Shown piece by piece: positions 4,716 to 62,681 of a stretch of 64,000 nt of DNA. The DNA lies in the IMG/VR virus record IMGVR_UViG_3300039452_000187, positions 1-64,000 of that record; one strand, given 5' to 3'. Made by a program: the position numbers and the translations under genes. The notes below the pieces were generated by a model. That model was not told where the DNA came from. It did not search any database and worked only from the letters and a program-made list of their open reading frames with translations. Numbering within the stretch: the first letter of the stretch is position 1; each line of letters opens with the position of its first letter. The stretch is from a virus. Taxonomy: Duplodnaviria; Caudoviricetes.

Positions 4716-5927
4716 TCAGGAGCCAAAAAGCCAGCGATGGACATGGGCGGCGACGTTTTCCAGGCGTTCGTCAAAAACGGCTTCCCGGTAGACGCTCGCC
4801 ATGTCATCCTTGGCATGACCCATGATGTAGTCGACCGCGACTTGGTCTTTAATGGACAGTCCCCCGCCGCTATAGGACGCATCGCCGCCGACGGTCTCAA
4901 AGGTGTGGCGCAGCGAATAGAACGAGAGTCCCTGCTTATACAGGCCGGTCGCGTCGAGGAGCTTGCGCGTGGCCTGCGAAATGGTAGCAAAACTTTTGGT
5001 GGTGGCCCAGGGTCGGCCGAACCGGGTGAGGAAGACGAGCGGCTCATGCTCGGGCTGGCGCGGACGCGGGCGGCGGGCGATCGCTTCCTCCAGGGCCGCG
5101 ACGGTTTCGGGCCAGAGCTTGGCCCGGCGCCCGATCCCGGTCTTGGGACGGTGGTAATGGTGCCAACCCTTGGCCAGGTCAAGACGGTCGCGCGGCAATT
5201 GCACGCAATCCTCGTTGCCGAAGCCGCAGTTGATGCCCAGAAGCAACATGGCCGTCAGGGGCGGCTCGGCGGCGGCAAGGAGTTGCCGCAAACACTCGGG
5301 CTCAAAGAAGCGCGGGTTCTTGGCAGCGCGCTCAAGCCGGAGGGTCTTCTTGCTGGGTCGCTTGAAGCCCGTGCCGAAACGGACCGTCTTGGTGAGCAGT
5401 CCGGAGGCGTCCTCGCCGCCGTGCCGAAAGAGGATACGGATGCGGTTGATTTCATTGCCGAGCCGGACGGGTCCCCACCGCCGGGCCAGCTCATCGCGCA
5501 GGTCGGCGAAGTCCTTGGGGGTCAGATCCTCCACGGCCCGGTTCAGACCGAACTGCTGGCCCACCAGGTCACAGGTCGCTTCATAGTCGGCCAGGGTGCG
5601 CTGGCCGATTTCGCCGGTGTCAAAGAGCCGGCGCTTCTCGGCCAGGAAGGAGTTGTTGAGTTCGTAGAGGCGCACGCTGACACCCGTTGACACCCGCGGT
5701 GTGCGGCCGGCGTAGAGGTCGTCTTTTTGCTCCAGGTAGCGGTTGAGCGCCCCCTGCCAGTCCTCCCAGGGACCGAAGTAGTGCATCTTGCCGCGGATCT
5801 TCTTGGCCCAGCGGCGGGTGGCGTGCGGGAAGAGGGGAAAGTCAGGATAGGGCTTGGCTGGTTTGGCGTGGCCGGTGACGCCGGTGACGCCGTTGACGCT
5901 CTCGGCCGATTGCCTATGGTGACTCAT
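4716..5927 (-). CDS. int: Tyrosine recombinase / phage integrase
   Basis: RPKTG (catalytic K), FYSLRHTFET, IMGH...MASVYRE (catalytic Y); N-terminal arm-binding domain; adjacent to tRNA fragment. Confidence 0.93.
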   Translation of the reverse strand: MSHHRQSAESVNGVTGVTGHAKPAKPYPDFPLFPHATRRWAKKIRGKMHYFGPWEDWQGALNRYLEQKDDLYAGRTPRVSTGVSVRLYELNNSFLAEKRRLFDTGEIGQRTLADYEATCDLVGQQFGLNRAVEDLTPKDFADLRDELARRWGPVRLGNEINRIRILFRHGGEDASGLLTKTVRFGTGFKRPSKKTLRLERAAKNPRFFEPECLRQLLAAAEPPLTAMLLLGINCGFGNEDCVQLPRDRLDLAKGWHHYHRPKTGIGRRAKLWPETVAALEEAIARRPRPRQPEHEPLVFLTRFGRPWATTKSFATISQATRKLLDATGLYKQGLSFYSLRHTFETVGGDASYSGGGLSIKDQVAVDYIMGHAKDDMASVYREAVFDERLENVAAHVHRWLFGS

Positions 5928-14129: not shown

Positions 14130-14169
14130 TTGACGCTGGCTTGATCTTGCGCGTCAAGCTGCGTATTCT
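14130..14169 (+). promoter_or_regulatory. Sigma70 promoter of the RNA array with overlapping palindromic operator
   Basis: TTGATC(14141-46)-N17-TATTCT(14164-69); TTGACGC-N14-GCGTCAA (14130-14157) straddles the -35; predicted start ~14175 coincides with the first RNA stem. Confidence 0.7.
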
Positions 14170-14174
14170 GGATA

Positions 14175-14310
14175 AAAAGGATCGTTCCCAACGGCTGGAG
14201 CGTACAAACAAAAGATGCTTCGTAGTGGAGCGTCAGCCTTATAAGCTGAAAGGACGGGTGCGACTCCCGTTCTTTTGTTACCTCGCTTGAGCGACTTGAA
14301 CGGTCCTTTT
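14175..14310 (+). ncRNA. Y-like RNA 1 enclosing a whole tRNA-like cloverleaf (anticodon UAU)
   Basis: Outer stem AAAAGGATCGTTC/GAACGGTCCTTTT, CCAAC/GACTT internal loop, second stem, TACAAAC; cloverleaf 14207-14279 with TCAGC-CTTATAA-GCTGA and ACGGG-TGCGACT-CCCGT. Confidence 0.75.
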
Positions 14311-14317
14311 CTTACTT

Positions 14318-14394
14318 CGCGGGGTGGACTGGAGCCAGGTTTCCAGCACGGTCTCATAAGCCGTCTCACGCAGGTTCAAATCCTGCTCCCGCGA
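14318..14394 (+). tRNA. tRNA with CAU anticodon (Met or Ile2), atypical D arm, no encoded CCA
   Basis: CGCGGGG/TCCCGCG acceptor, ACGGT-CTCATAA-GCCGT, GCAGG-TTCAAAT-CCTGC. Confidence 0.85.
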
Positions 14395-14396
14395 CT

Positions 14397-14535
14397 GTCC
14401 GTGCCCGACAGTGAGAACGTACAAACTGCATGTGGGTTCGACTCCCATCTTCTTCGCAAGGAGAAGTAGCCTAACGGTAAGGCAAACCTCTGATAAAGGT
14501 TGATAGTGATTCCCGTTTTCATGACTTGCACGGAC
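14397..14535 (+). ncRNA. YrlA-like Y RNA with circularly permuted tRNA domain (anticodon GAU)
   Basis: GTCCGTGC/GCACGGAC outer stem, CCGAC/GACTT loop; T arm (GTGGG-TTCGACT-CCCAT), acceptor stem closed by GCAA, D arm (GCCT-AACGGTA-AGGC), anticodon arm (AACCT-CTGATAA-AGGTT). Confidence 0.85.
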
Positions 14536-14540
14536 GATTT

Positions 14541-14660
14541 TCCAGGAGTAGCAGATCAGGTTTGCTTTTGCGACTTGGATGCTCGGCGTCCTCAATGGCA
14601 GAAGCTTACATGCGTCAGCCCGCAAAGCTGAAGAAGCTGGTGCGATTCCAGCCTCCTGGA
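14541..14660 (+). ncRNA. tRNA-like RNA (anticodon GCA) with the Y-like module inserted in the D loop
   Basis: TCCAGGAG/CTCCTGGA acceptor, TCAGC-CCGCAAA-GCTGA, GCTGG-TGCGATT-CCAGC; insert GCTTTTGC-GACTT-GGATGC-tcg-GCGTCC-TCAAT-G-GCAGAAGC. Confidence 0.75.
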
Positions 14661-14695
14661 CTCTCCTTTTGGGTTGTTGCCTAAAGGGACATTGA

Positions 14696-14780
14696 TGGGG
14701 GAGTAGGCTTCATTCTGTTCCGGTGACTTGGACGCTTGGCGTCCCCAACGGTCGAAACATACAAACTCCTACCCACCCCA
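14696..14780 (+). ncRNA. Stand-alone permuted Y-like module RNA
   Basis: TGGGG..GTAGG/CCTAC..CCCCA outer stem; TGTTCCGGT-GACTT-GGACGC-ttg-GCGTCC-CCAAC-GGTCGAAACA-TACAAACT. Confidence 0.7.
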
Positions 14781-14794
14781 CCCGACTGTTTCGA

Positions 14795-14831
14795 GCGGTG
14801 CCGGCTTGATCGCGACCGGCACCGCCTTTTT
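14795..14831 (+). terminator. Intrinsic terminator between RNA array and protein genes
   Basis: GCGGTGCCGG/CCGGCACCGC 10-bp stem followed by CTTTTT. Confidence 0.7.
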
Positions 14832-14864
14832 CTATCCATCGCCACCTGTTCTGGAGGTCATGCG

Positions 14865-15188
14865 ATGCAGCAGCAACAGTTCAACCATCCCCATCAGCAG
14901 CAGCCAGGCGGCATCTTGGACGAGACGCTTGCCGCTACGGCCCACGCGCAAGCCCAGCAGCCCAACGGCGCCGCCACGCCTGTGCGGCTGCTCCATGCCC
15001 GGTTCGGCGGGCGCTCGCACGATATTCCGCTGAGCGTGCTCGATCTCGGGGACCAATCCGCCGACGCGCAGGTGATTGCCGCGCTCGCCAACCATCTGGA
15101 CGTGCCGCGCGAGAAGTTCGCCGCCTACGCGGTCGATCGCTCGCCCAACGGCAACTTCACCGTCCGGCCCGAAGCGGTGTTCGGGTGA
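14865..15188 (+). CDS. Ubiquitin-like (beta-grasp) small protein ending in Gly
   Basis: LHARFGGRSHDIPL (beta hairpin), helix DAQVIAALANHLDVP, terminal strand FTVRPEAVFG*; GGAGG RBS; E1 and JAB in the same operon. Confidence 0.7.
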   Translation: MQQQQFNHPHQQQPGGILDETLAATAHAQAQQPNGAATPVRLLHARFGGRSHDIPLSVLDLGDQSADAQVIAALANHLDVPREKFAAYAVDRSPNGNFTVRPEAVFG

Positions 15189-15439
15189 GCGACCGTTGCC
15201 GCATTGACGAGCATTGCGACTGCTGCGGTGACAAAAGACTGACGCGCGAAGTCCACTTACTTTTCCCAAGCGGCTATGGGGGCCACGTGACCCAACCGGT
15301 CCTGGCCTGTCACGAGTGCGCCTGCCGACAGCTTTACCTGATCGGCTTGAAGCTGACGCCAGAGCAGCTGTGTGAGCTTCGTCGCCAGTTAATGACCGCC
15401 AGAATCGATGCGGAAGATAGCTACACCGGGGGCGAATGA
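15185..15439 (+). CDS. Small Cys-rich Zn-binding protein
   Basis: CDCCG...CHECAC; GTGA overlap with the Ubl gene. Confidence 0.55.
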   Translation: MSDRCRIDEHCDCCGDKRLTREVHLLFPSGYGGHVTQPVLACHECACRQLYLIGLKLTPEQLCELRRQLMTARIDAEDSYTGGE

Positions 15440-15443
15440 AGCC

Positions 15444-17332
<1,889 letters not shown>

Positions 17333-17344
17333 GGATGGTGCCCC

Positions 17345-18259
17345 ATGCCGCGCCTGCGCACCCTCCCTCCTGGCTTTGACCGCCTCGCGGCCGCCGAGTC
17401 CGACTTTTTGCGCCAGCAGTTCCTCGCCCCGCGCCTGGCCAACCAACCCGTCCGCGTCCGCCTCGCCGGGGTGGTCTGTACGCTTCGCGTCGAGCCGGCC
17501 GCCTTCCAGGGCTGGGGCGTCTTCCAGCCTGTGACCTTGGCTCAGGCCCGGCTGGTGCGCCTCGCCTCGCTCCGGGAACGCACCGCCTATCTTTCGCTCT
17601 TCCCGCGCGTCCGCTTTGTCCTCTGTCGTCGCACTAACGACCAGTGGTACGGCTTGCTGGCCGGCGCCGACAGCCGGTTCCACCTGGTTGCGGCCGGCCC
17701 GGTGCCGTTGCAACTGGTGGATTGTCGGCAGTTGTTCGACACGGTTGTCTGTCGATTTGACGGCAGCCAGTTCTGGTGGGAACAGCCCGAGCCGCGCCGG
17801 GCCAAGCCCGCCGAGCAGCTGCGAGAGGCGCTGGCCGGGCTCCGCGAGCCGGAGGCGCTAGAGGTTTTGGGACTGACGCCGGTGGAACAGGCGGTTTACG
17901 AGGCCCATTATCGGGTGCGGCAGGCAGAGATCGCCGACTCGCTCCGCGACCGCACCGAGGAGCGGTTGGCGGCCGCGCTCGAGCATGCCGGGGCCACGTT
18001 GCAGGGGTACCGGGAACGAGAGGATGCGTTTACGGTGGAATACCTTGTGGACGGCGAGCGGCACACGTCGGTGCTCAGGAAGGACGATCTGCAAGTGCAG
18101 GCGGCCGGGATTTGTTTACGCGGCACTGATGGGCGGTTTGATCTGCAGTCGCTTGTGGGTGTTATCCGCGAGGCGAAGGACGGGCACCGGTTGGTGCGGG
18201 TCGGGATCGACAACCCGCATCAGTACCATGAGGACGAAGACCACGGAGACGAGCCATGA
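17345..18259 (+). CDS. Conserved-looking hypothetical protein, candidate divergent E2-like enzyme
   Basis: C-terminal helix plus beta meander ending AAGICLRGTDGRFDLQSLVGVIRE (Cys257); sits between TROVE and JAB/E1. Confidence 0.5.
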   Translation: MPRLRTLPPGFDRLAAAESDFLRQQFLAPRLANQPVRVRLAGVVCTLRVEPAAFQGWGVFQPVTLAQARLVRLASLRERTAYLSLFPRVRFVLCRRTNDQWYGLLAGADSRFHLVAAGPVPLQLVDCRQLFDTVVCRFDGSQFWWEQPEPRRAKPAEQLREALAGLREPEALEVLGLTPVEQAVYEAHYRVRQAEIADSLRDRTEERLAAALEHAGATLQGYREREDAFTVEYLVDGERHTSVLRKDDLQVQAAGICLRGTDGRFDLQSLVGVIREAKDGHRLVRVGIDNPHQYHEDEDHGDEP

Positions 18260-18431
18260 GTTGGGGTGAGAGCGACGACGAAAAATTCGGGCCGGAAGGC
18301 CGCTATGGGCGCTGGCTCTACGAGGACCACGCCACGGGCAAGTTCGCTGCTATGCGCCGTCGGCCCCGGCTTGTCCTTGGAGGAAGCCGAGCGGCGGGCT
18401 GGCACAGTGAACGCAGACCAAGGGGGCGGCG

Positions 18432-18686
18432 ATGCCTGACGAGCAGCAGATCGGTTATTTGTTGGACCGCTGGAAAGAACAGCTGCTGGACGCGGTGCGG
18501 CAAGGTTGCGTGGTCGCCTTTCGGCTGGAGCACGATGGTGGGGAGTTGCTGTTCGGCTATGACGACGAGCCACCGTTCTACGGTCCGATTGAGGGTTGCC
18601 GGTTGACGATCGAGATCGGTCGCTCGGCCATGAAGACGATTCACCGGGCACTGATAGCCGGGAAGACGGAGAGAAAAGCCACGTGA
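18432..18686 (+). CDS. Hypothetical protein
   Basis: ORF with RBS and GTGA overlap with the JAB gene. Confidence 0.5.
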   Translation: MPDEQQIGYLLDRWKEQLLDAVRQGCVVAFRLEHDGGELLFGYDDEPPFYGPIEGCRLTIEIGRSAMKTIHRALIAGKTERKAT

Positions 18687-19120
18687 GCACGACACCAAAA
18701 CCGACGCGAAAGCACAAGCGGAAGAAGAGTGGCGAGAACGAGGTCGCCAGTGTTCTGTTAGGGCGCCGCGCCGGCCGTCTCTGGCTCTGTCGAGCGTGTT
18801 GGGAGTGGACCGGGACTCCCGTCTCGGTGGAGTTTGCCGCCCAGCGTGTCCTCGAGGAAGAAGGCTATTTCGGGGACGTGATGGGCTTCTACCACACGCA
18901 CCCCAACATGCCGGCCCGGCCGAGTGAGCGTGACATCCGCACCATGCAAGCCTGGGTGGGCTGCCTGGGCAAGCCACTGTTGTGTCTTATCAGGGGCCGG
19001 GACGGTTTGCGTGGTTGGGTGTTCCGCGATGATGAGGACAAGGGCCAACCTCTCGTCGCGCTACTTTGGCAGGAGTCCTTTCAACCCGTGCCCATCTTCG
19101 CTGCCCTGACAAAGGAGTAG
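18683..19120 (+). CDS. JAB/MPN metallopeptidase
   Basis: NEVASVLLG...GFYHTHPNMPARPSERD gives the E...HxH..(7)..S..D JAMM motif. Confidence 0.88.
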   Translation: MSTTPKPTRKHKRKKSGENEVASVLLGRRAGRLWLCRACWEWTGTPVSVEFAAQRVLEEEGYFGDVMGFYHTHPNMPARPSERDIRTMQAWVGCLGKPLLCLIRGRDGLRGWVFRDDEDKGQPLVALLWQESFQPVPIFAALTKE

Positions 19121-19124
19121 CACT

Positions 19125-19778
19125 GTGAAACTCTACCGACACGAAGAAGCCTACCGTGGAGCCGCCGGCCTGGCCAAGCTTGCCAGCGCTAGGGTTGTCC
19201 TGTGCGGCGCCGGAGCGATCGGCAGCAACCTGGCCGATCAGCTGGCCCGCCAGGGCTGCTCCAACCTGGCCGCCATCGACCACGACCGCGTCGAGGAACA
19301 CAACATCGGTACCCAGCGCTATGCCCGGCACGATATCGGCAGTCTCAAGGCGCAGGCTCTGCAAGCCGCCGTGTTCGCGGCCACGGGCGCCGAGCTGGAA
19401 GCGGTGGACAAGCACCTGACGGAGAAGAATGCCCGGAAGCTGTTGCGGGCGGCGGACCTGGTGGTCGAGAGTTTCGATAACGCGAGGTCACGCCGGTTGG
19501 TCCAGGATACCTGCCGGGCATTGCCCAAACAGTGCCTGCACGTCGGTTTATTCGAGGGCTACGCGGAGGTTGTCTGGGATGACCGTTACCGCATCCCCAA
19601 GGATCCTCTGCGTGCCGGTACCGGCACCGCTGTGGACGTGTGCGACCTGCCCTTGGCTCGCAACCTCATCATGCTGGCCGTTACGGTCGCCGCCGAAGCT
19701 GTGGTGAGTTATCTGCTTTTCGGCCGGCACCGCTCCTTCACTATCACCTTGGACGATCTGCGCATCAGCGAAAGCTGA
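19125..19778 (+). CDS. ThiF/E1-like adenylyltransferase
   Basis: VVLCGAGAIGS, IDHDRVEEHNIGTQ, K, ESFDNARSR; candidate thioester Cys173 in DVCDLP. Confidence 0.92.
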   Translation: MKLYRHEEAYRGAAGLAKLASARVVLCGAGAIGSNLADQLARQGCSNLAAIDHDRVEEHNIGTQRYARHDIGSLKAQALQAAVFAATGAELEAVDKHLTEKNARKLLRAADLVVESFDNARSRRLVQDTCRALPKQCLHVGLFEGYAEVVWDDRYRIPKDPLRAGTGTAVDVCDLPLARNLIMLAVTVAAEAVVSYLLFGRHRSFTITLDDLRISES

Positions 19779-19807: not shown

Positions 19808-20449
19808 CTAATGAGACTCTTCTTCGCGCCGCACCTGCGCTTCAAGCGACGACCGCAATTCGGCCCACGAGCGCACCGCGGCAAGGATGGGCTCGTACTG
19901 GTCCGGCCCTTCTACCTCGTCCGCATGTAGGCTGTTCCAGCGGCGCGGCACCAAAATGGCGTCGCCGTGGGCCGCCCGGAATTTCGTCACCGTCTCTTCG
20001 CGGTCATCAATCAGCAAGGCGCCGGGTCCGGCCAATAGCTCCTTGTGACGAGCCAGAACGCACATACCGCTGCCCGTACCACGGCCGAAGCGCGATTGCA
20101 GCCAACGCACCTTGCCGGAGAGCGAATTGGGGTCCAAGGTCGGCGCCGTCAGGAAATAGGTATCAGCAATGTCCTGACAGCCAAGTACCAGGTCAAGGAT
20201 GCCGGGGTACGGCTCCAGGTGTTGCCAGAATCGCTCCCCTTGGGCTTCCAGGACACCATAGAAGTCATTGGGGGTCAGCCCCATTGCGGTCCAGAAGTTC
20301 CAGGACGGCTCACCTGGCTCGAGCCGAGCCCAGACCGCCGAAGGCTCGTGGCCACAGGCGCGAATTGCCGCACTGGCGAAATCGCACAGGACCCCGTCGA
20401 GGTCGAGAAAGATGCGGCGCGGCAGCGGCAACAGTGGCGGCAAAGACAT
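19808..20449 (-). CDS. HAD-family 5'(3')-nucleotidase (NT5C-like)
   Basis: IFLDLDGVLCDF, FLTAP, K..WL, LLIDDR motifs. Confidence 0.85.
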   Translation of the reverse strand: MSLPPLLPLPRRIFLDLDGVLCDFASAAIRACGHEPSAVWARLEPGEPSWNFWTAMGLTPNDFYGVLEAQGERFWQHLEPYPGILDLVLGCQDIADTYFLTAPTLDPNSLSGKVRWLQSRFGRGTGSGMCVLARHKELLAGPGALLIDDREETVTKFRAAHGDAILVPRRWNSLHADEVEGPDQYEPILAAVRSWAELRSSLEAQVRREEESH

Positions 20450-20578
20450 GACAGACACCAGAGTGTTGACCAGGGAAGAATAGGGCCGGTCCCGAAGGGT
20501 CATCCGGGACCGGCCAGGGCGAAACGCGCGGGCCAACTCCGGCCCTTCCAAGGAGATCCTTCCGCAACAACAGGCAGC

Positions 20579-56384: not shown

Positions 56385-59300
56385 TTACTCCTTGACTGAG
56401 AGGTTGTGCTGTTCGCGGTAGGCCGCTTCGGGATCCTGGCGGTATTTTTCCAGCCAGCGCTTGGCCTCATCGCGCTGCTCATTAGTCATGTAGCCGGACA
56501 CGTTGTAGTCATCATAAGGCTTCGCCTGCGCTTCGAGCGCCTTGATAGCCGCCGGGATCTTGGAGGTAATGACTTCCTCCGGCGTTGCCGGTCGGACCAG
56601 CACATGCTGCATGCGTCCTAGCCCACCAATCTCCGGGTCGCGCAACTCAAAGACGTCGCTGCCGGCCAGGACGGTGTAATCCTTGCCGCGTACCTGGATG
56701 ACCGCCCCCTTTTTCTTGGGCGGAAAGCCACCGGTTCCGCCCACCCCCAGATCCTGCTGCGCCTTGATGCGCCAGACTAGGGCATCGGCCGGAGGATTTT
56801 TCGGCAGGTCGCGCTTGGTCATGCCGAAATCCTTGGGCTTGTCGTAGAGCTTGCCAACCTTGCCCCGCGCCGCGTCGTAGACCTTTCGCGTGAACGCCGG
56901 CTTCAGCGCCTTCTCCATCACGTCGGAGAGGACGTAGGACAAACCTCGATTCGGATCATCGGCTTTGATGCCCAGATCGCTGGCCAATCGCTCCAGTCGT
57001 GGCCGGCTCAGGCTGTAAATGCTATCTCGCCACTCTTTTTGGACGCGCTCAGGGTCATTTGTCGTGGCCGCCTGCGCCAGCAGATCCTTGGCGCGAGCAG
57101 CCCGTTCGGCGCGTCCGTGTTCGGCGGTCGCGGCCTCGTAGCGATCCTGCGCCGCCTTGAAAATATGCGTGTTGGGGTAAGTTCGATCCCGCTTCGCCGG
57201 ATCGGCGCCCACGATTCGCTCTGCTTCCTCGCGCTCTTCGGCCGACAGATCGTTGAGCGTCGGCGCCATGTCAATCCAGCCCTGCACCGCCGCCGGATTG
57301 GCCACAAAGCGGCGCAAGAAGTCGAGCGCCGGTTCCCCTGGCTGCCGCTTCAGTGGGCCACCCTGTTGCGTTGCAGTCGGAGTAACTGCCGATACGGCTG
57401 GCTGGGACACGTCTGGCTGCTTGACCGACTCGGGCTTCGGTGCCGCTGCAGCCGGTGGCGCCAGGGCCGCCTTGGCATCCTCATAGCCTCGCCGCCAGCG
57501 ATTGACTTTGCCGCCACTCCAGCCCCGCTCCTTCCATGATTCCTCCGTCTTGCCCGCCAGGGCATCGACGAATCCAGCTCGGAACTCGTCGGCCGGAGGC
57601 GTGCCCGCCTGAAGATTCCGTTTCGCCAGAGCTTCCGCCAACGCGACCTCGTGCCCCGCTGCCACCGTGTCAGATTGTGCCCCTGTCATTGCTGCCGTGC
57701 CGACCATCGCATTCCCCTCCGCAGGCTTCCCCGGTGTCGCGCCCGTCGCGTCACCTGCAGAGATCATAGTCTGTTGGACCGGACTAGTCAAGTCTTCCTG
57801 ACTAGAATTCGCGGAAGTTTTTTCGGGCGGGCTTGGGACCGGTGCCGGTTCGGTTTCCGGCGGCTCACTGGCCGATTGCTGGGCCGTTGCCGGTTGGTTC
57901 TCCTTCAAGCGGTACAGCGGCCCGCCGTATCGCCGTGCCACCTTCTCGACATGCCCGCTCCGTTCCAACTCTTCCAGGTGCCGTTGCAGCTCGGCGCTTG
58001 GCTTACCTGTCGCATCGGCCAGTTCATCGACCGACGCAATGCCGTGCTCGGAGAGGACCGCCAAGGTTGAGTGGTCGGCGCCGGAAATATTGGAGGGTTG
58101 TTCCACTGCCGGTGCCGGCGCCGGTGCCTGTGACTGTTTCCCTTTCAGTGCCTGTTCCACCACATCGGCGCCATTGCGGTAGTAGCCCGCCAACTCCTTA
58201 TGCCCGGCCTTTTCCAGGGCGGGAATGAGCGTCTCGCGAATGCGCTGGACCACATTCGCCAGCCCCTTCTCGCCTTGCCGCCGGTAGCCCGGATCGGCCG
58301 AGGTCATAAAGCGGTTCCAATTGGACGCTGCCGATCTCAGCCATTCGTTCGTATGAAGTCCGAGCTGGGCATGAAGTTTGTCCAGGTGGCGTGTGTCCGC
58401 GTTGGCCAGTGCTTCCAACTTCTGGCCGATGTCGCGCGTAGGGTCGATCAAGATAGCCCGATCGCGTGCGGAAAGGACATCAGTTTCGGCCGCAGCCTTC
58501 ATCGGATCAGCGGTAGCCAGTGCGGACTGCGCGGTCTGCGGCTGGTTGGCCTGGTTGGCCTGGTTGCTCGGTGCTTGTTTCGACGACCGCTCAGCATCCG
58601 TCAACATCGCCGCAATCTCGTGCAGGCCGTTGACGCCAGCTTTTTCCATCGCGGATTGCAGCAGCTGCCGCGCCAAGAAGCTACTCGGCAGCGCTGCAAG
58701 ATGTTTCCTGGCGCCAAACGTCATCACGTCTTGTTCGGCCATATGCCTTGGGATACCTTTCTCCCAGGCAATGCCATCCTCTGGAACTTCCTTGCCGTTG
58801 GCGCGTTCCTCGGCCACTTCACGCTCGATCCGATCGAGATACCTCTTCTCCAACTGCTGGGCCAAGTTTTTTAATCTGCCTTCACCGATCGCTTCGGCAA
58901 ACTCCTTCCACTCTTTCATGTTGATCGTGCTCCGCTGCATCGCCTTGTAATTGGGATGCTCGCCAAACCACTTGAGTCGCCCCAGGGGACTGGCATTGAT
59001 GTCATTCCACTTGACCTGCTGCTCCTGCCGCTCTTTCTCGTCCTGGATTTGTTCTGGCGTCATTGGCTCGCGCGGCTGCTTTTGCTTGGCATTTTCGCTG
59101 GGCGGCTTGCCCATCTCGCCGCCTTGCGGTTCTTTAGTCTGGGGCTTCTGGTCAGGTTTCACCGAGAGTCCGTGAATCGGCATCCACCGGCCGCCCTTGT
59201 AGAACTCACCGTTAACCGGGGACGTTTCGCCGCCAGCTTTCGCCTTCACCCAGGTTGTCCCTTTACTGTCCTTGAACTTGTTTGCATCGGCTGGAGGTTT

Positions 59301-62300
59301 TTCGGCTGGTTGCTCCGCGCCATCGGCGCCGCTTGTCTTCTCCGTTGCCGCGTCAATCTGCCCCGTGATGCCGTGCTCCTTGGCCCACTCCAGCATGTGC
59401 TTGTACGCCTTGAGTCGTTTGCCGAACTGCTCCCGCAACCCTTCCGCGTTGGGGTGCTCGGGCGGAATCCCGTCCAGGAACTTCTGATGCTCCTGGATCA
59501 GTTCTTCCAGCCGATGTACCGTGAGTTCGCCGTGGTGCGAGCGGAGCCCGGCGAAGCTGGCCTTAGCCCGGCGCAATTCCAGTTCTGACAACTCATGGCG
59601 GGTGTGTGGCTCGAGCTGCTCGTGCAACTTGGCGACGTCGATACTACCACGCGACCGGCGCCGCTCGGTCTGCTCCTCCTTGGCCTTGTCAATCTTGGCC
59701 TTTTCGCTGGCCGGCAACTTTTCGACTTCCTTGGCCGGAATCCACTGCCCGCCTTTGTAGTGCCTGCCGTTGGCGCCAACGATGCCACCCTTCGGGGCGC
59801 GCTCCGCAGCGTATTGGTCCGCCTCCTCGCCCTGCTTAATGTCCCACTTCTTCCGTTCTTCATCCCAGGCCACGTACCAGCCCGTCCCTTCCAATTCCTC
59901 TGCCGCCGCCGCAAACTCGCTCTCGGGAATCTCCAGCCCGGCGTCGTCCAGGGCGTTCCAGCCGTCGGCATACCAGCGGGCCAGCTCCCGAGCTTGCACC
60001 GAAGAATCTGGGTCCGCTGCTTCCCGGTCATAGCGCTCCTGCGCGGGCGGCCCCACCGCGATGCCGAAGTGGACGAACTTGCGGCCCTGGTCGTCCTGGT
60101 CGTGCCAGATTTGCTCGAAGCGCTCCACGGGGATCATGACCCGGCCGGGCGTGCGCTCCACATCTCGATCGTTGGTCACGTTGTCAATCGAACTGTCCTG
60201 GCAGAATACCTGCCCGAGCCCTACGCCAATGACCGTGAGATAGTGCCCGTAGTTAAACGAAGCCCCGGCGCTCCTTCTGTGCCCGTAATCTTGCACCGGG
60301 GTAATGACCGGCCAGCCGCGCCCGAAGTAGTCGGCCAAATCGTCCACGGCCATTCCATTCCGGGCTTCCACCTGCAAACCGAGCGAGCGCAGGTAATCAA
60401 TGATGGCGTAGGGGTGCGTAGATTTGGCCAGCGTCGTGCCGAGCGCCTGCTTCCACTCCGCCAGGCGCTCGGGGCCGACGCCGAAATACCGCCCCGTGGT
60501 CATCGAGGCACAGGCGCCGCAGCTGTAGTGATCGCGCTGGCGTATGTCCTGGACCGGCAGCAGTTCACTGCCAGGCGCGGCCGCAGTGAGAGCGTCGGTA
60601 CGGTCATAGCGGGCGGGCTGGTCGGCGCGGGCCAGGTCGATCTTCGGGTTGCTGGGATCAAAGGTGCCCGCGTTGTCCACAGCCTTGATTTGGTGAGGCT
60701 CGAAGGCAATCCAGACCCGGTGCTGCTGAACCCCTTCGATTTTTTTGCCGCGGCGAGACCCATAATGACCCACATGGGTAATCCCGTCATACCCTTGTGC
60801 GGCTAAATGCTTCTGGAGTCCCGACTTACTCAAGCCTCCTTGACGGACAACCTCTTCATAACTCGCGTGGGGTCGCTGAACCTCGTGGACATCGGGCTGA
60901 AAACTGATGTTGTAAGGCCGCAGGGCCTTGCGAAATTCCGGGTGGGATTGATAGAGGCCCCAGAGCCGTTGCGGTTCGGCCGTCATCATTTGCTTCATTT
61001 GTTGCCAGGTGAAATTCATCGACACGTTCGGTAACGATTCAAGCGCCGCGTGCATCTGTTGCCAGTGCTGATCGGTCGGCGTGACTGCCTCATCACTGAC
61101 CAGCAGAATGGGCCGTGTCTGTTTGATGCGAAACCGACTGCGCGCCGGCTCGGGAAGGTCTGCTGTAGCAATCTTGCCACGGTCAATGTCAAACGGCTTG
61201 CGGATGTTGAGGTACACGCTAAAAACGTGTCCCTTGGGCCGTTCCACCCAGCCGGCAAACTGGTTGCCGAACTCTGCATTGAGAATGTGCTCACCCTTGG
61301 CAACGGCGACACCGACGTTGCTCTCTGTTGAGTCAAGAATCATCGCTTCCAGCTGATGCAACTGGTATTGGCGAGACTCCAAATCTTCAGCCTGCCGCTG
61401 GAGCGATCGTTGAGCGACACGGTCCTGAGTCAACCTCAATTCCTTCACTGTGTACTGCAGATCGGCCGCCACCTTCGCGGCTTTTTGCTTGAGCGCCGGC
61501 AGTAACTCGCGGCGCACTCGTTCCACCGGCACGGCGAGTTTACCGCCAGCCCTGTCGACCAGGCCACTCCCGTGCTGCTTGTAGTCCTCCGCGATCGCCG
61601 CCGCGTCCGTAAAATAGAACCCTGGTCCATAGAACAGCTTTTCGCCCTTGGCGAGTTTGCTTTTCAAGAACTCGTCAAAGCGGTCCCAAGGGGTGCCGTG
61701 GTACACCACCTTGGGCATCAGGTTCTCAACGACGACCGAATGTTCCACCGGTGCCTGCTGCTGCGGCTCACCCGTTTCCGGGTCGATGACTTTGGACGCA
61801 TGGGCCGCATCGTGCTCCCAATCGCCGAACCAGGCACGAAACGCGGGAGCGCGGGTGCCAAGCTCCTGATACTCCTTGCGCAGCCGGGCTGCTTTCGCTT
61901 CCGGCGTCTCTGGCGCCGCTGCGGCCGGAGCTTGCTTGCCTTGTGCATCCTGACCTGGTTCCGGGCGCGGCCCCGGATCGTCCTCATGCTCGCCCTCGTG
62001 CTCGTGCCCGCCCGGCATTTCGTCCCGGTACAACACTCTCCCCGTGCGGTTGCTCTTCCAGCCCTTACCGCCGCGCGGTCCCGTGTACGGCGTCCACTCC
62101 CCGCCCGCGCTGCCGCCGCCCTGCGGGTCCAGGAAATTGGTTTGCCCGGCCGCGTCCTTTTTCTTCCGCGCGTACTGGTCCGCCTCTGGCTGGTAGGTGC
62201 CGTCCCACTCCAGCACCAACTCCCGCAGCTGCTCGGGATCCTTCACCGGCTCGGCCTCGCTCAGACTGAACGGGCCGCCGCCGCGATGGTAGTACAGGTC

Positions 62301-62681
62301 ATGCCCGGGACTATCATTCCGGTCGTCCACCACCACGACATGCTCCGCGATCTCTGGGGCCTCCACCTGGTCTGTCGTGCCGCCCTGCGGCAGCGTCACC
62401 AGGCAGATCCGGTGCAAAGAATCGTCATGCGGATCGGTGAGGTAGAGCCAGCCGCCGCGCGGCACCGCCCCCAGCACGTCCGCCAGGACGGCCGCGTTCT
62501 GGACGTTGACGGGATCAGGCGGCGGCAAAGGCTCGGTCAGCTCGTTTGTGTTGTCCGATTCGGCCGCGTACTTCCCGACTGAGGCTGCCGCCAAGACTTC
62601 TTCCAGTTCGGCGTCGGTCACTGCCGTAGCATCCGTCAGACCGCTGAGAAAGGACCGAAACTCCTGCACTAGCGCTGTCAC
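56385..62681 (-). CDS. Giant polyvalent protein: ART-like domain, C39 peptidase, wHTH and others
   Basis: FRAWFGDW..VYHGT..GFYFTD..VYLNIRKP..GYDGI..FEPHQIK (ART-PolyVal-like, ~60640-61850); Q...YSCGAC..GHY...QD (C39, ~60050-60565); wHTH ~57900-58070. Confidence 0.85.
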   Translation of the reverse strand: MTALVQEFRSFLSGLTDATAVTDAELEEVLAAASVGKYAAESDNTNELTEPLPPPDPVNVQNAAVLADVLGAVPRGGWLYLTDPHDDSLHRICLVTLPQGGTTDQVEAPEIAEHVVVVDDRNDSPGHDLYYHRGGGPFSLSEAEPVKDPEQLRELVLEWDGTYQPEADQYARKKKDAAGQTNFLDPQGGGSAGGEWTPYTGPRGGKGWKSNRTGRVLYRDEMPGGHEHEGEHEDDPGPRPEPGQDAQGKQAPAAAAPETPEAKAARLRKEYQELGTRAPAFRAWFGDWEHDAAHASKVIDPETGEPQQQAPVEHSVVVENLMPKVVYHGTPWDRFDEFLKSKLAKGEKLFYGPGFYFTDAAAIAEDYKQHGSGLVDRAGGKLAVPVERVRRELLPALKQKAAKVAADLQYTVKELRLTQDRVAQRSLQRQAEDLESRQYQLHQLEAMILDSTESNVGVAVAKGEHILNAEFGNQFAGWVERPKGHVFSVYLNIRKPFDIDRGKIATADLPEPARSRFRIKQTRPILLVSDEAVTPTDQHWQQMHAALESLPNVSMNFTWQQMKQMMTAEPQRLWGLYQSHPEFRKALRPYNISFQPDVHEVQRPHASYEEVVRQGGLSKSGLQKHLAAQGYDGITHVGHYGSRRGKKIEGVQQHRVWIAFEPHQIKAVDNAGTFDPSNPKIDLARADQPARYDRTDALTAAAPGSELLPVQDIRQRDHYSCGACASMTTGRYFGVGPERLAEWKQALGTTLAKSTHPYAIIDYLRSLGLQVEARNGMAVDDLADYFGRGWPVITPVQDYGHRRSAGASFNYGHYLTVIGVGLGQVFCQDSSIDNVTNDRDVERTPGRVMIPVERFEQIWHDQDDQGRKFVHFGIAVGPPAQERYDREAADPDSSVQARELARWYADGWNALDDAGLEIPESEFAAAAEELEGTGWYVAWDEERKKWDIKQGEEADQYAAERAPKGGIVGANGRHYKGGQWIPAKEVEKLPASEKAKIDKAKEEQTERRRSRGSIDVAKLHEQLEPHTRHELSELELRRAKASFAGLRSHHGELTVHRLEELIQEHQKFLDGIPPEHPNAEGLREQFGKRLKAYKHMLEWAKEHGITGQIDAATEKTSGADGAEQPAEKPPADANKFKDSKGTTWVKAKAGGETSPVNGEFYKGGRWMPIHGLSVKPDQKPQTKEPQGGEMGKPPSENAKQKQPREPMTPEQIQDEKERQEQQVKWNDINASPLGRLKWFGEHPNYKAMQRSTINMKEWKEFAEAIGEGRLKNLAQQLEKRYLDRIEREVAEERANGKEVPEDGIAWEKGIPRHMAEQDVMTFGARKHLAALPSSFLARQLLQSAMEKAGVNGLHEIAAMLTDAERSSKQAPSNQANQANQPQTAQSALATADPMKAAAETDVLSARDRAILIDPTRDIGQKLEALANADTRHLDKLHAQLGLHTNEWLRSAASNWNRFMTSADPGYRRQGEKGLANVVQRIRETLIPALEKAGHKELAGYYRNGADVVEQALKGKQSQAPAPAPAVEQPSNISGADHSTLAVLSEHGIASVDELADATGKPSAELQRHLEELERSGHVEKVARRYGGPLYRLKENQPATAQQSASEPPETEPAPVPSPPEKTSANSSQEDLTSPVQQTMISAGDATGATPGKPAEGNAMVGTAAMTGAQSDTVAAGHEVALAEALAKRNLQAGTPPADEFRAGFVDALAGKTEESWKERGWSGGKVNRWRRGYEDAKAALAPPAAAAPKPESVKQPDVSQPAVSAVTPTATQQGGPLKRQPGEPALDFLRRFVANPAAVQGWIDMAPTLNDLSAEEREEAERIVGADPAKRDRTYPNTHIFKAAQDRYEAATAEHGRAERAARAKDLLAQAATTNDPERVQKEWRDSIYSLSRPRLERLASDLGIKADDPNRGLSYVLSDVMEKALKPAFTRKVYDAARGKVGKLYDKPKDFGMTKRDLPKNPPADALVWRIKAQQDLGVGGTGGFPPKKKGAVIQVRGKDYTVLAGSDVFELRDPEIGGLGRMQHVLVRPATPEEVITSKIPAAIKALEAQAKPYDDYNVSGYMTNEQRDEAKRWLEKYRQDPEAAYREQHNLSVKE

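Follow-up and report, generated by a model that had tools for sequence, protein, structure and literature searches.

In a phage genome of 97,554 bp (IMG/VR record IMGVR_UViG_3300039452_000187), the first 64,000 nucleotides (nt), referred to here as the window, carry on their plus strand a cassette at positions 14175-19778. It begins with five tRNA-like RNAs and a terminator and continues with protein genes for a small ubiquitin-like protein (Ubl), a Ro-like protein, a protein of 304 amino acids (aa) from an unnamed family (p304), a JAB peptidase and a ThiF-type activating enzyme (E1). The cassette is interpreted as the phage copy of a conserved bacterial gene set in which a Ro-like/Y-RNA particle is functionally coupled to the activation and conjugation of the Ubl, an interpretation to which we give slightly less than an even chance. 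Its parts are identified by family and by fold, four of its RNAs share a covarying bulged helix (the clamp helix), and its gene order is conserved in several bacterial phyla and in phages. The new element of this arrangement is a Ro/Y-RNA particle linked to a Ubl module by way of a new cysteine protein, p304. Most of the genes are joined by start/stop overlaps or by gaps of 4-12 nt, in agreement with an earlier model-made reading of the DNA letters (the sequence-only reading), which had described them as largely translationally coupled.

Conservation of the gene set

The proteins of the window were compared by tblastn with 80 bacterial genome loci centred on Ro-like genes, many of which are cut by contig ends. 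A Ubl gene was found near the Ro-like gene in 49 of these loci, p304 also in 49, ThiF in 45 and JAB in 21, with Ubl, RNAs, Ro, p304, (JAB), E1 as the nearly invariable order. At least five phyla are represented, including Planctomycetota, Chloroflexota, Cyanobacteriota, Abditibacteriota and Myxococcota. Roughly 55 of them extend at least 4 kb downstream, and about 35 of these possess the Ubl module; most of the exceptions belong to Gemmataceae. Among 11 viral loci of IMG/VR with a Ro-like gene, nine contain Ubl, p304 and JAB together, and seven of the nine also have ThiF within the stretch fetched. Several of the viral carriers are huge phages of 240-570 kb, in one of which the cassette adjoins an array of 16 tRNAs. 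The grouping of Ubl, TROVE-type, p304, JAB and ThiF genes pointed out in the sequence-only reading is therefore not confined to the window but recurs across phyla and phages. Only 21 of the 49 bacterial cassettes include JAB, but all nine phage cassettes do (9/9), even though no C-terminal trimming of the Ubl is ever required.

All-versus-all clustering of the open reading frames (ORFs) in the 80 loci revealed no other conserved partner (such as RtcB, PNPase, KptA or sulfur enzymes) in more than about 10 loci. One big cluster that appeared to represent p304 was inflated by alternative-frame ORFs lying over the Ro gene and was disregarded. In the whole phage genome, none of RtcB, rhodanese, cysteine desulfurase or PP-loop ATPase (including Aminotran_5 and ATP_bind_3) was found. 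The absence of the first three, noted earlier for the window, thus extends to the complete phage and to the conserved neighbours in the bacterial loci.

Proteins of the cassette

The Ro-like gene (15689-17332) has an ATG start with a good ribosome-binding site and encodes a divergent Ro60-like protein of 547 aa, with a TROVE-type helical ring followed by a vWA domain. Its AlphaFold2 (AF2) model has a mean predicted local distance difference test score (pLDDT) of 84. The eleven best Foldseek matches of this model are all Ro60/TROVE structures, aligned over some 530-590 columns at E values of 1e-11 to 5e-8 and template modelling (TM) scores of 0.54-0.66, and they rank ahead of generic vWA structures. 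They include 9nfa, 9nen, 2nvo, 1yvp and phage phiLo 9l5y, and cover Ro60 of human, Xenopus, Deinococcus and phiLo. A profile of 30 Ro-like homologues finds human RO60 in the PDB at E 2.8e-4. Pfam assigns to the protein nothing more than a weak vWA, with vWA_Ro60 at E 0.084, below the cut-off, and no TROVE match. About 2000 homologues were found, the nearest about 58% identical, and many carry a precomputed PF25045 match. The metal-ion-dependent adhesion site (MIDAS) motif DxSxS..T..D is intact, with D360, S362, S364, T423 and D447 invariant in the 30 sequences. The protein is only 13-17% identical to Ro60s of solved structure; judged by its model, it has the Ro60 fold, with both ring and vWA domain. 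The TROVE-like/vWA protein with a Ro-like toroid that the sequence-only reading proposed is borne out by these full-length structural matches.

The Ubl gene (14865-15188) encodes 107 aa, in which a Q-rich N-terminal tail precedes a conserved core of 66 aa that ends in RPEAVFG with a free glycine. A single C-terminal glycine (VFG or VYG, followed by the stop codon) is kept in 48 of the 49 homologues encoded beside Ro-like genes, with nothing after it, so that the Gly-terminated Ubl described earlier stands. No family was named by any sequence search, and the comparison of its profile with the PDB gave only L23, at E 0.03. In the ESM Atlas model, residues 38-107 have as structural neighbours outside their own family Prok_Ub, Ufm1, ubiquitin, BilA_UBL_2, RnfH and FERM_N at TM 0.51-0.61. 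These are beta-grasp families, in line with the earlier assignment, and the Ubl is best described as a predicted beta-grasp protein, which is a good lead and not proof.

The E1 gene (19125-19778) encodes a minimal ThiF-family, E1-like adenylating enzyme of 217 aa, which matches PF00899 with 102.1 bits against a cut-off of 28.1. The family motifs GxGxxG and DN are present, and G28, G30, G33, R42, D52, D54, D118, N119 and R123 are invariant. So is Cys173, within DVCDYPLARN, for which a thioester role is predicted, as in the earlier reading. Profile alignments to E1s of solved structure stop near residue 142, before Cys173, and do not cover its equivalence to the crossover-loop cysteine. No CxxC zinc motifs, ubiquitin-fold domain (UFD), rhodanese or other accessory domain were identified in this protein. 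In profile comparisons the E1 finds Uba1/Uba6 (active adenylation domain) at 1e-19, TcdA at 3e-18 and, nearly as well, Uba4, MoeB and ThiF, and the protein falls below all NCBIfam equivalog cut-offs (ThiF 94.5 bits against 159; MoeB lower).

The JAB/JAMM metallopeptidase (18683-19120, about 145 aa) matches PF14464 with 41.9 bits against a cut-off of 25 (E 1e-10) and is also recognized by the JAB models of PADLOC. Its start is most likely the GTG at 18683, inferred from the lengths of homologues, which overlaps the stop of an upstream 84-aa ORF. The metal site E..HxH..S..D is complete, with E20, H71, H73, S81 and D84 invariant in 17 sequences, and together with the Pfam match it confirms the JAB peptidase named at first reading. 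In PADLOC, the E1-E2 models match the E1 half alone, Cap2 likewise, and beyond the generic E1 and JAB no system of this collection was matched.

The product of the p304 gene (17345-18259) belongs to an unnamed family of more than 1000 members, all of which are annotated as hypothetical and none of which has a Pfam domain. Its AF2 model (pLDDT 88.7) consists of N-terminal tandem OB-like barrels, a long helix (179-214), a C-terminal sheet of four strands (218-253), a loop with Cys257 and a further helix (267-280). This cysteine lies in the motif AGICLxGxDxxFDLxSLVGV and is kept without exception in 29 sequences, which represent five phyla. The Cys domain was not encountered in other architectures among the best 150 matches of a profile search of 1.84 billion representatives. 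Here p304 is regarded as a new cysteine protein whose front end is of RNA-binding type.

The sequence-only reading had taken p304 for a candidate ubiquitin-conjugating enzyme (E2) on account of this cysteine. The cysteine itself is invariant, but the assignment is not supported. Foldseek against the PDB, VIA-align in a wide and a second look, and an Atlas search with the C-terminal domain all gave no UBC match. Likewise, the p304 profile found no E2 support in the PDB, and Pfam detected neither UQ_con nor Prok-E2 in the 29 members, all of which lack an HPN motif upstream of the cysteine. Direct alignment by hhalign of the Cys domain with 18 planctomycete UQ_con (UBC) domains reached a probability of 1.2%. 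The resemblance to UBC is one of topology, with an invariant cysteine in the loop after a four-strand meander, and of a GICL-like motif, and goes no further. Canonical UBC-type E2 domains with HPN and catalytic cysteine do occur in 38 of 301 sampled genomes of Planctomycetota, in proteins of 166-1067 aa that are unrelated to the cassette (L094-L120). The phylum sampled is that of G001, an Isosphaeraceae metagenome-assembled genome with one of the bacterial loci (L010).

The RNA array

The stretch 14150-14860 folds with a z score of -5.7 relative to shuffles, and piecewise folding resolves it into the five structured RNAs announced in the sequence-only reading: M1, a free-standing cloverleaf, M3, M4 and M5. 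M1 (14175-14310; free energy dG -57.9, z -6.0) is made of the clamp helix, with CCCAAC..UACAAAC in its 5' strand and GCGACUUG in its 3' strand, closed around a complete tRNA-Ile(UAU)-like cloverleaf (14208-14279), which was called by ARAGORN and scores 46.6 bits with the tRNA model. The second RNA (14317-14394), which lacks a clamp helix, is a tRNA-like cloverleaf whose anticodon loop reads CAU; it scores 29.7 bits against a gathering score of 29 (z -2.4) and was not called by ARAGORN. In M3 (14396-14536; z -3.8, tRNA model 29.8 bits), the clamp helix surrounds a rearranged tRNA-like core composed of a T-arm, a closed hairpin, a D-arm and a GAU anticodon-like arm, with a weak YrlA match (26 bits) at 14431-14483. 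M4 (14541-14660) folds as a cloverleaf with a 7-bp acceptor stem, a GCA anticodon-like arm and a T-arm, in which the position of the D-arm is occupied by a triloop-closed clamp helix; the tRNA model gives 27 bits over 14596-14652. M5 (14686-14792; repeat family D1/D2) is a long hairpin tipped by a closed clamp helix and followed by UACAAAC. Since its fold z score is only -0.7, the support for M5 comes from motif conservation. Of the four anticodon-like loops, those of M1 (UAU), the free cloverleaf (CAU) and M3 (GAU) correspond to the three types of isoleucine isoacceptor, while that of M4 is GCA (Cys).

The motif CGUyCCCAAyGGnnGrArCnUACAAAC occurs at 14183, 14400, 14587 and 14740, and its partner GCGACUUG at 14290, 14520, 14569 and 14722. 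Their pairing gives a bulged clamp helix, with CCCAAC opposite GCGACUUG, in four of the RNAs of the window. Many bacterial loci contain both motifs in their Ubl-Ro spacer, arranged in tandem at a spacing of about 120-200 nt; in phages the RNAs lie upstream of the cassette. Among 72 non-identical examples, none deviates at C8, C9 and A11 of CCCAAC (72/72) or at A10, C11 and U12 of GCGACUUG, and the flanking stems covary; pair a5-b16, for example, is U-A in 51, C-G in 18 and U-G in 3. The covariation was tested on a MAFFT alignment of 63 RNAs, with a helix of 21 pairs and with shuffled sequences and slid partners as controls. In this alignment 88.5% of the helix cells are paired against 77.3% in shuffles, and 184 double-change cells are observed against 71 in shuffles. 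Thirteen pairs are changed on both sides, and none of 500 shuffles matches the observed score. Pairing drops to 46% or less when the partner strand is slid by 1-3 columns. A stem-bulge-stem formed by the 5' and 3' ends of the RNAs is supported by covariation, as for Y RNA.

Known Y RNAs carry in this bulge the motif CGAA or GNCGAAN0-1G (PMC4201824, PMC12135203). This motif is absent from the cassette RNAs, whose bulge is CCCAAC opposite GCGACUUG. The gathering score of Rfam YrlA (RF02553), 69, was not reached either, the window attaining 26.2 bits and a bacterial locus (L001) 36.4 bits, and the core alone aligns. The cores of the bacterial RNAs match the T-arm, hairpin and D-arm portion of YrlA at E 4.7e-6. 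The two other features of Y RNAs, a tRNA-like domain and adjacency to a Ro gene, are both present, the former as matches to the tRNA model and the latter by position in the Ubl-Ro spacer or upstream. Because a covarying clamp helix surrounds a tRNA- or YrlA-like core, yet the bulge differs and the YrlA scores stay below gathering, these RNAs are, as far as sequence can tell, a new subclass of Y RNA outside RF02553. The view of them as Y-RNA-like tRNA mimics is upheld by the covarying Ro-type helix and by the tRNA and YrlA core matches.

Some features of the RNAs differ between phages and bacteria. The clamp closed as a hairpin, that is, GCGACUUG, stem, loop of 3-4 nt, stem and CCCAAC, is seen only in phage loci (L083, L085, L089 and L093, and in the window at 14569-14598 and 14722-14751), with compensating changes. 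Bacterial arrays show the open form of the clamp around the tRNA-like core. They also possess a hairpin right after UACAAAC with varied 7-nt loops and U at position 2, a qualitative observation from a noisy loop survey in which the loops are often T-loops. The spacer between the Ubl and Ro genes holds the Y-like RNA array in bacteria but two small ORFs in the phage, whose array lies upstream of the Ubl gene.

Transcription signals and small ORFs

The sequence-only reading placed the whole cassette behind a single promoter. No sigma-70-like promoter on the plus strand was found by a promoter scan, and the claim is reduced to a weak TTGATC-17-TATTCT at 14141-14169 that is readable by eye only. 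An intrinsic terminator, missed by a simple scan, lies between the RNA array and the Ubl gene (14795-14833) and has a G+C-rich stem of 10 bp with a U tract behind it (fold dG -23.6, z -4.4).

The earlier gene list holds for the main genes but lacked four small ORFs on the plus strand. Two of these lie between the Ubl and Ro genes, namely a Cys-rich ORF of 84 aa (15185-15439), with a weak match to an HNH PHROG (E 4e-4), and an ORF of 94 aa with a hydrophobic segment (15408-15692) that overlaps it. Neither has a homologue in 91 related loci; both are specific to this phage and are perhaps not genuine genes. The other two lie between p304 and JAB. One, at about 18256-18439, starts at 18256 or 18266 and is 57-116 aa long, its frame being ambiguous by G+C content at third codon positions (GC3). 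The second, of 84 aa (18432-18686), has a good ribosome-binding site and high GC3, and its stop overlaps the JAB start in GTGA. The small ORFs of 18256-18686 have no homologues in the related loci and are phage-specific.

The phage genome

The source genome has 63% G+C and bears a 147-bp repeat at both ends (direct terminal repeats), and its completeness is rated 100% by CheckV; the record is classified as a virus in IMG/VR. A large terminase is encoded outside the window, at genome positions 77858-79345 (phrog_2, E 7.8e-34), and a tyrosine integrase on the minus strand at 4716-5927 (PHROG match). On these grounds (terminal repeat, CheckV completeness, large terminase and integrase) the locus is carried by a complete temperate phage; the sequence-only reading had called it phage-borne. 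The nearest relatives of the cassette proteins are from Planctomycetota, and the host is therefore likely to belong to this phylum.

Among ten large ORFs of the window compared with PHROGs, the integrase gave the sole match, and for the majority of the window's large ORFs neither PHROGs nor Pfam provides a family. The minus strand encodes, at 56385-62681, a polyvalent protein of 2098 aa that combines an ART-PolyVal ADP-ribosyltransferase domain with a winged-helix region. Next to it, an ORF of 1935 aa from 62693, also on the minus strand, extends beyond the window. An NT5C-type 5'-deoxynucleotidase (19808-20551, minus strand) is convergent on the end of the cassette. Further phage genes include two DNA methyltransferases and an exonuclease V/Dda-like helicase (genome 80395-81414 and 89865-93882). 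A nucleotide search of GenBank phages gave one weak match, to the 595-kb uncultured phage LR756511.1, with 66% identity over about 1 kb of the Ro-like gene (window 15761-16818).

Proposed function and alternatives

The working of the cassette we infer as follows. The Ro-like ring would bind the clamp helix, in which the CCCAAC bulge opposite GCGACUUG would substitute for the Ro-binding stem of Y RNAs, and the tRNA-shaped module would thereby be displayed as bait or scaffold. The E1 would adenylate the free C-terminal glycine of the Ubl, which would then pass via Cys173 of the E1, Cys257 of p304, or both, while the OB-like barrels of p304 could dock this protein on the RNA or the ribonucleoprotein (RNP). 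The Ubl would be joined to a protein held by the particle, which could be one of its own components or an enzyme that binds tRNA and is trapped by the mimic, and JAB would remove the Ubl again. While the phage infects, the cassette would most plausibly protect or re-tune tRNA and the translation machinery, with host defences that target tRNA as one example of the threat.

Several observations speak against such a coupling. The terminator sits between the RNA array and the Ubl gene, and for that reason the RNAs and the protein genes may be separate transcription units, possibly transcribed independently. About 20 of the roughly 55 bacterial loci of sufficient length have a Ro-like gene with no Ubl module nearby, which indicates that the RNP can exist alone. 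The Ubl terminates in FG and has no GG pair, and its beta-grasp fold depends on an Atlas model with a whole-protein mean pLDDT of 0.58. The resemblance of the E1 to Uba1 is no closer than its resemblance to the tRNA-acting TcdA or to ThiF/MoeB. Finally, p304 is not recognizably an E2, and the transfer step is therefore conjecture.

A more specific form of the proposal, which we consider doubtful, is RNA-programmed Ubl tagging. Here the interchangeable tRNA-mimic Y RNAs on the Ro60-like ring would choose the tRNA-binding protein (or RNA) that receives the Ubl, transfer would run through the non-UBC protein p304, and the RNP would serve as a specificity factor comparable to a ubiquitin ligase (E3). 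The sequence-only reading had likewise cast the RNP as the substrate of Ubl conjugation or as its E3-like specificity factor, roles that are purely speculative.

The main rival, in our view unlikely, is a sulfur-carrier pathway. The Ubl, adenylated by the E1, would form a thiocarboxylate with the help of host sulfur donors, and p304 would thiolate the tRNA-like RNAs or host tRNAs, in the manner of TtuB/TtuC/TtuA or Urm1/Uba4, with JAB in a side role. The minimal size of the E1 fits such a pathway, and its best NCBIfam matches are ThiF and MoeB; yet it remains below the equivalog cut-offs of both. The 66-aa core of the Ubl is of the size of ThiS or TtuB, but known sulfur carriers end in GG and this protein in FG. 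T-arms and anticodon-like arms in the partner RNAs, and a p304 that has OB-like barrels and an invariant cysteine and is not E2-like, would also suit tRNA thiolation. Against this, neither the phage nor the conserved neighbours in the 80 loci include a rhodanese, cysteine desulfurase or PP-loop ATPase, although such partners could be host-encoded, and JAB is kept in 9/9 phage cassettes though the Ubl needs no trimming.

To a bacterial immune or abortive-infection origin we assign a rather low probability. The chemistry would be the one proposed above and the role the opposite, with the cassette carried by the phage as cargo for superinfection exclusion or lysogen benefit. The occurrence of the cassette in chromosomes of many phyla and the integrase of the phage agree with this idea, and Ubl/E1/JAB sets are known defence modules (Bil and CBASS; the E1-E2 and JAB models of PADLOC match). 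Beyond the generic E1 and JAB domains, though, no PADLOC system is recognized, and huge phages, which are presumably lytic, commonly carry the cassette beside tRNA arrays, a setting that fits phage translation support or counter-defence.

An action of the E1 or the Ubl on RNA instead of protein is given a lower probability still. Either the carboxyl of a modified base would be adenylated, as TcdA does on t6A, or the Ubl would be esterified to an RNA end and held by the Ro-like ring. TcdA is among the best profile matches of the E1 (3e-18), and the conserved partners besides Ubl and JAB, namely the Ro-like protein, the OB-like p304 and the tRNA mimics, are all RNA-related. A strictly conserved free-glycine Ubl and a JAB isopeptidase, in contrast, are hallmarks of protein-linked chemistry, and no precedent for a Ubl-RNA conjugate was found in the literature searched.

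That a Ro/Y-RNA locus and a Ubl/E1/JAB locus are merely adjacent is very unlikely: some Ro-like loci do lack the Ubl module, and a cyanobacterial locus (L073) has its Ubl-p304-E1 trio 3 kb from the Ro-like gene, but the same order is kept at 40-60% protein identity in Planctomycetota, Chloroflexota, Cyanobacteriota, Abditibacteriota, Myxococcota and phages, with the bacterial RNAs wedged between the Ubl and Ro genes.

Comparison with known systems

Ro60/Y-RNA particles and Ubl conjugation are both ancient, widely studied and of medical relevance in eukaryotes. To our knowledge, no known system ties the two together. Phage Ro60 with Y-like RNAs (PMC4201824, PMC12135203) and, separately, bacterial Ubl/E1/JAB systems have already been published. 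The literature searched contains no description of a Ro60-Ubl link, and a prior mention in the RNA-repair survey of Burroughs and Aravind (2016) or in the review of Sim et al. (2020) is possible. The linkage is kept in at least five bacterial phyla and many phages. Besides a Y-RNA subclass that is new and covaries, it includes an unnamed protein family, over 1000 members strong, in which one cysteine is invariant. Should the coupling prove functional, the cassette would show how an RNA particle directs, or is controlled by, protein tagging, and would offer a tractable bacterial and phage model for the function of Ro60. It may also represent a new layer of phage-host conflict over tRNAs. These predictions are directly testable with a few recombinant proteins and RNAs.

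Operons that combine Ubl, E2-like, E1 and JAB genes were described by Iyer, Burroughs and Aravind in 2006, with mention of neither vWA nor TROVE (PMC1779556). The cassette follows the same Ubl, E1 and JAB grammar but differs in its vWA/TROVE partner and in p304, for which Pfam gives neither Prok-E2 nor any other match. Bacterial Ubl conjugation in defence is represented by Bil (BilABCD), CBASS Cap2/Cap3 and the Bub operons (PMC10097602, PMC10557695, PMC11601596). As in these systems, a Ubl, an E1, a JAB-type peptidase and a partner bearing a cysteine are gathered in one operon. Unlike them, the cassette has no UBC-type E2 by HPN motif or profile and no CD-NTase or other effector, Cap2 matches its E1 half only, and its partner is an RNP.

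TtuB/TtuC of Thermus is a Ubl-E1 system that operates without a canonical E2. The same combination of Ubl, E1 and JAB lacking a canonical E2 is found in archaeal SAMP/UbaA/HvJAMM1 (PMC4443979, PMC4895103). The cassette resembles both in its small predicted beta-grasp protein with a free glycine, its single ThiF-type E1, its JAMM peptidase and a possible dual link to tRNA. The differences are that its Ubl ends in FG, that its E1 is shorter (217 aa) and devoid of zinc CxxC motifs or rhodanese, that p304 is always present in addition, and that the setting is one of Ro and Y RNA.

Among bacterial Ro60 systems, that of Deinococcus comprises Rsr, Yrn1 and PNPase. Published examples of Ro60 (Rsr) with Y RNA include the YrlA RNAs of Salmonella and Mycobacterium (RF02553; PMC4201824) and the Ro60 of Thermus phage phiLo with Yrl1/Yrl2 (PMC12135203; PDB 9kop, 9l5y). 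Bacterial and phage Ro60 and the cassette have in common a ring-shaped TROVE plus vWA protein, adjoining small RNAs that combine a terminal stem-bulge-stem with a tRNA-like domain, and an occurrence in phages as well as in bacteria. The cassette protein stands apart from the known Ro60s in its low identity (13-17%) and in giving no Pfam TROVE match, and the cassette RNAs stand apart from YrlA in their scores (26-36 bits against 69) and in a bulge of CCCAAC opposite GCGACUUG instead of CGAA or GNCGAAN0-1G. Finally, whereas known Ro60 loci are associated with RtcB/RtcA or PNPase, the Ro-like gene of the cassette is linked to a Ubl, an E1, a JAB peptidase and p304.

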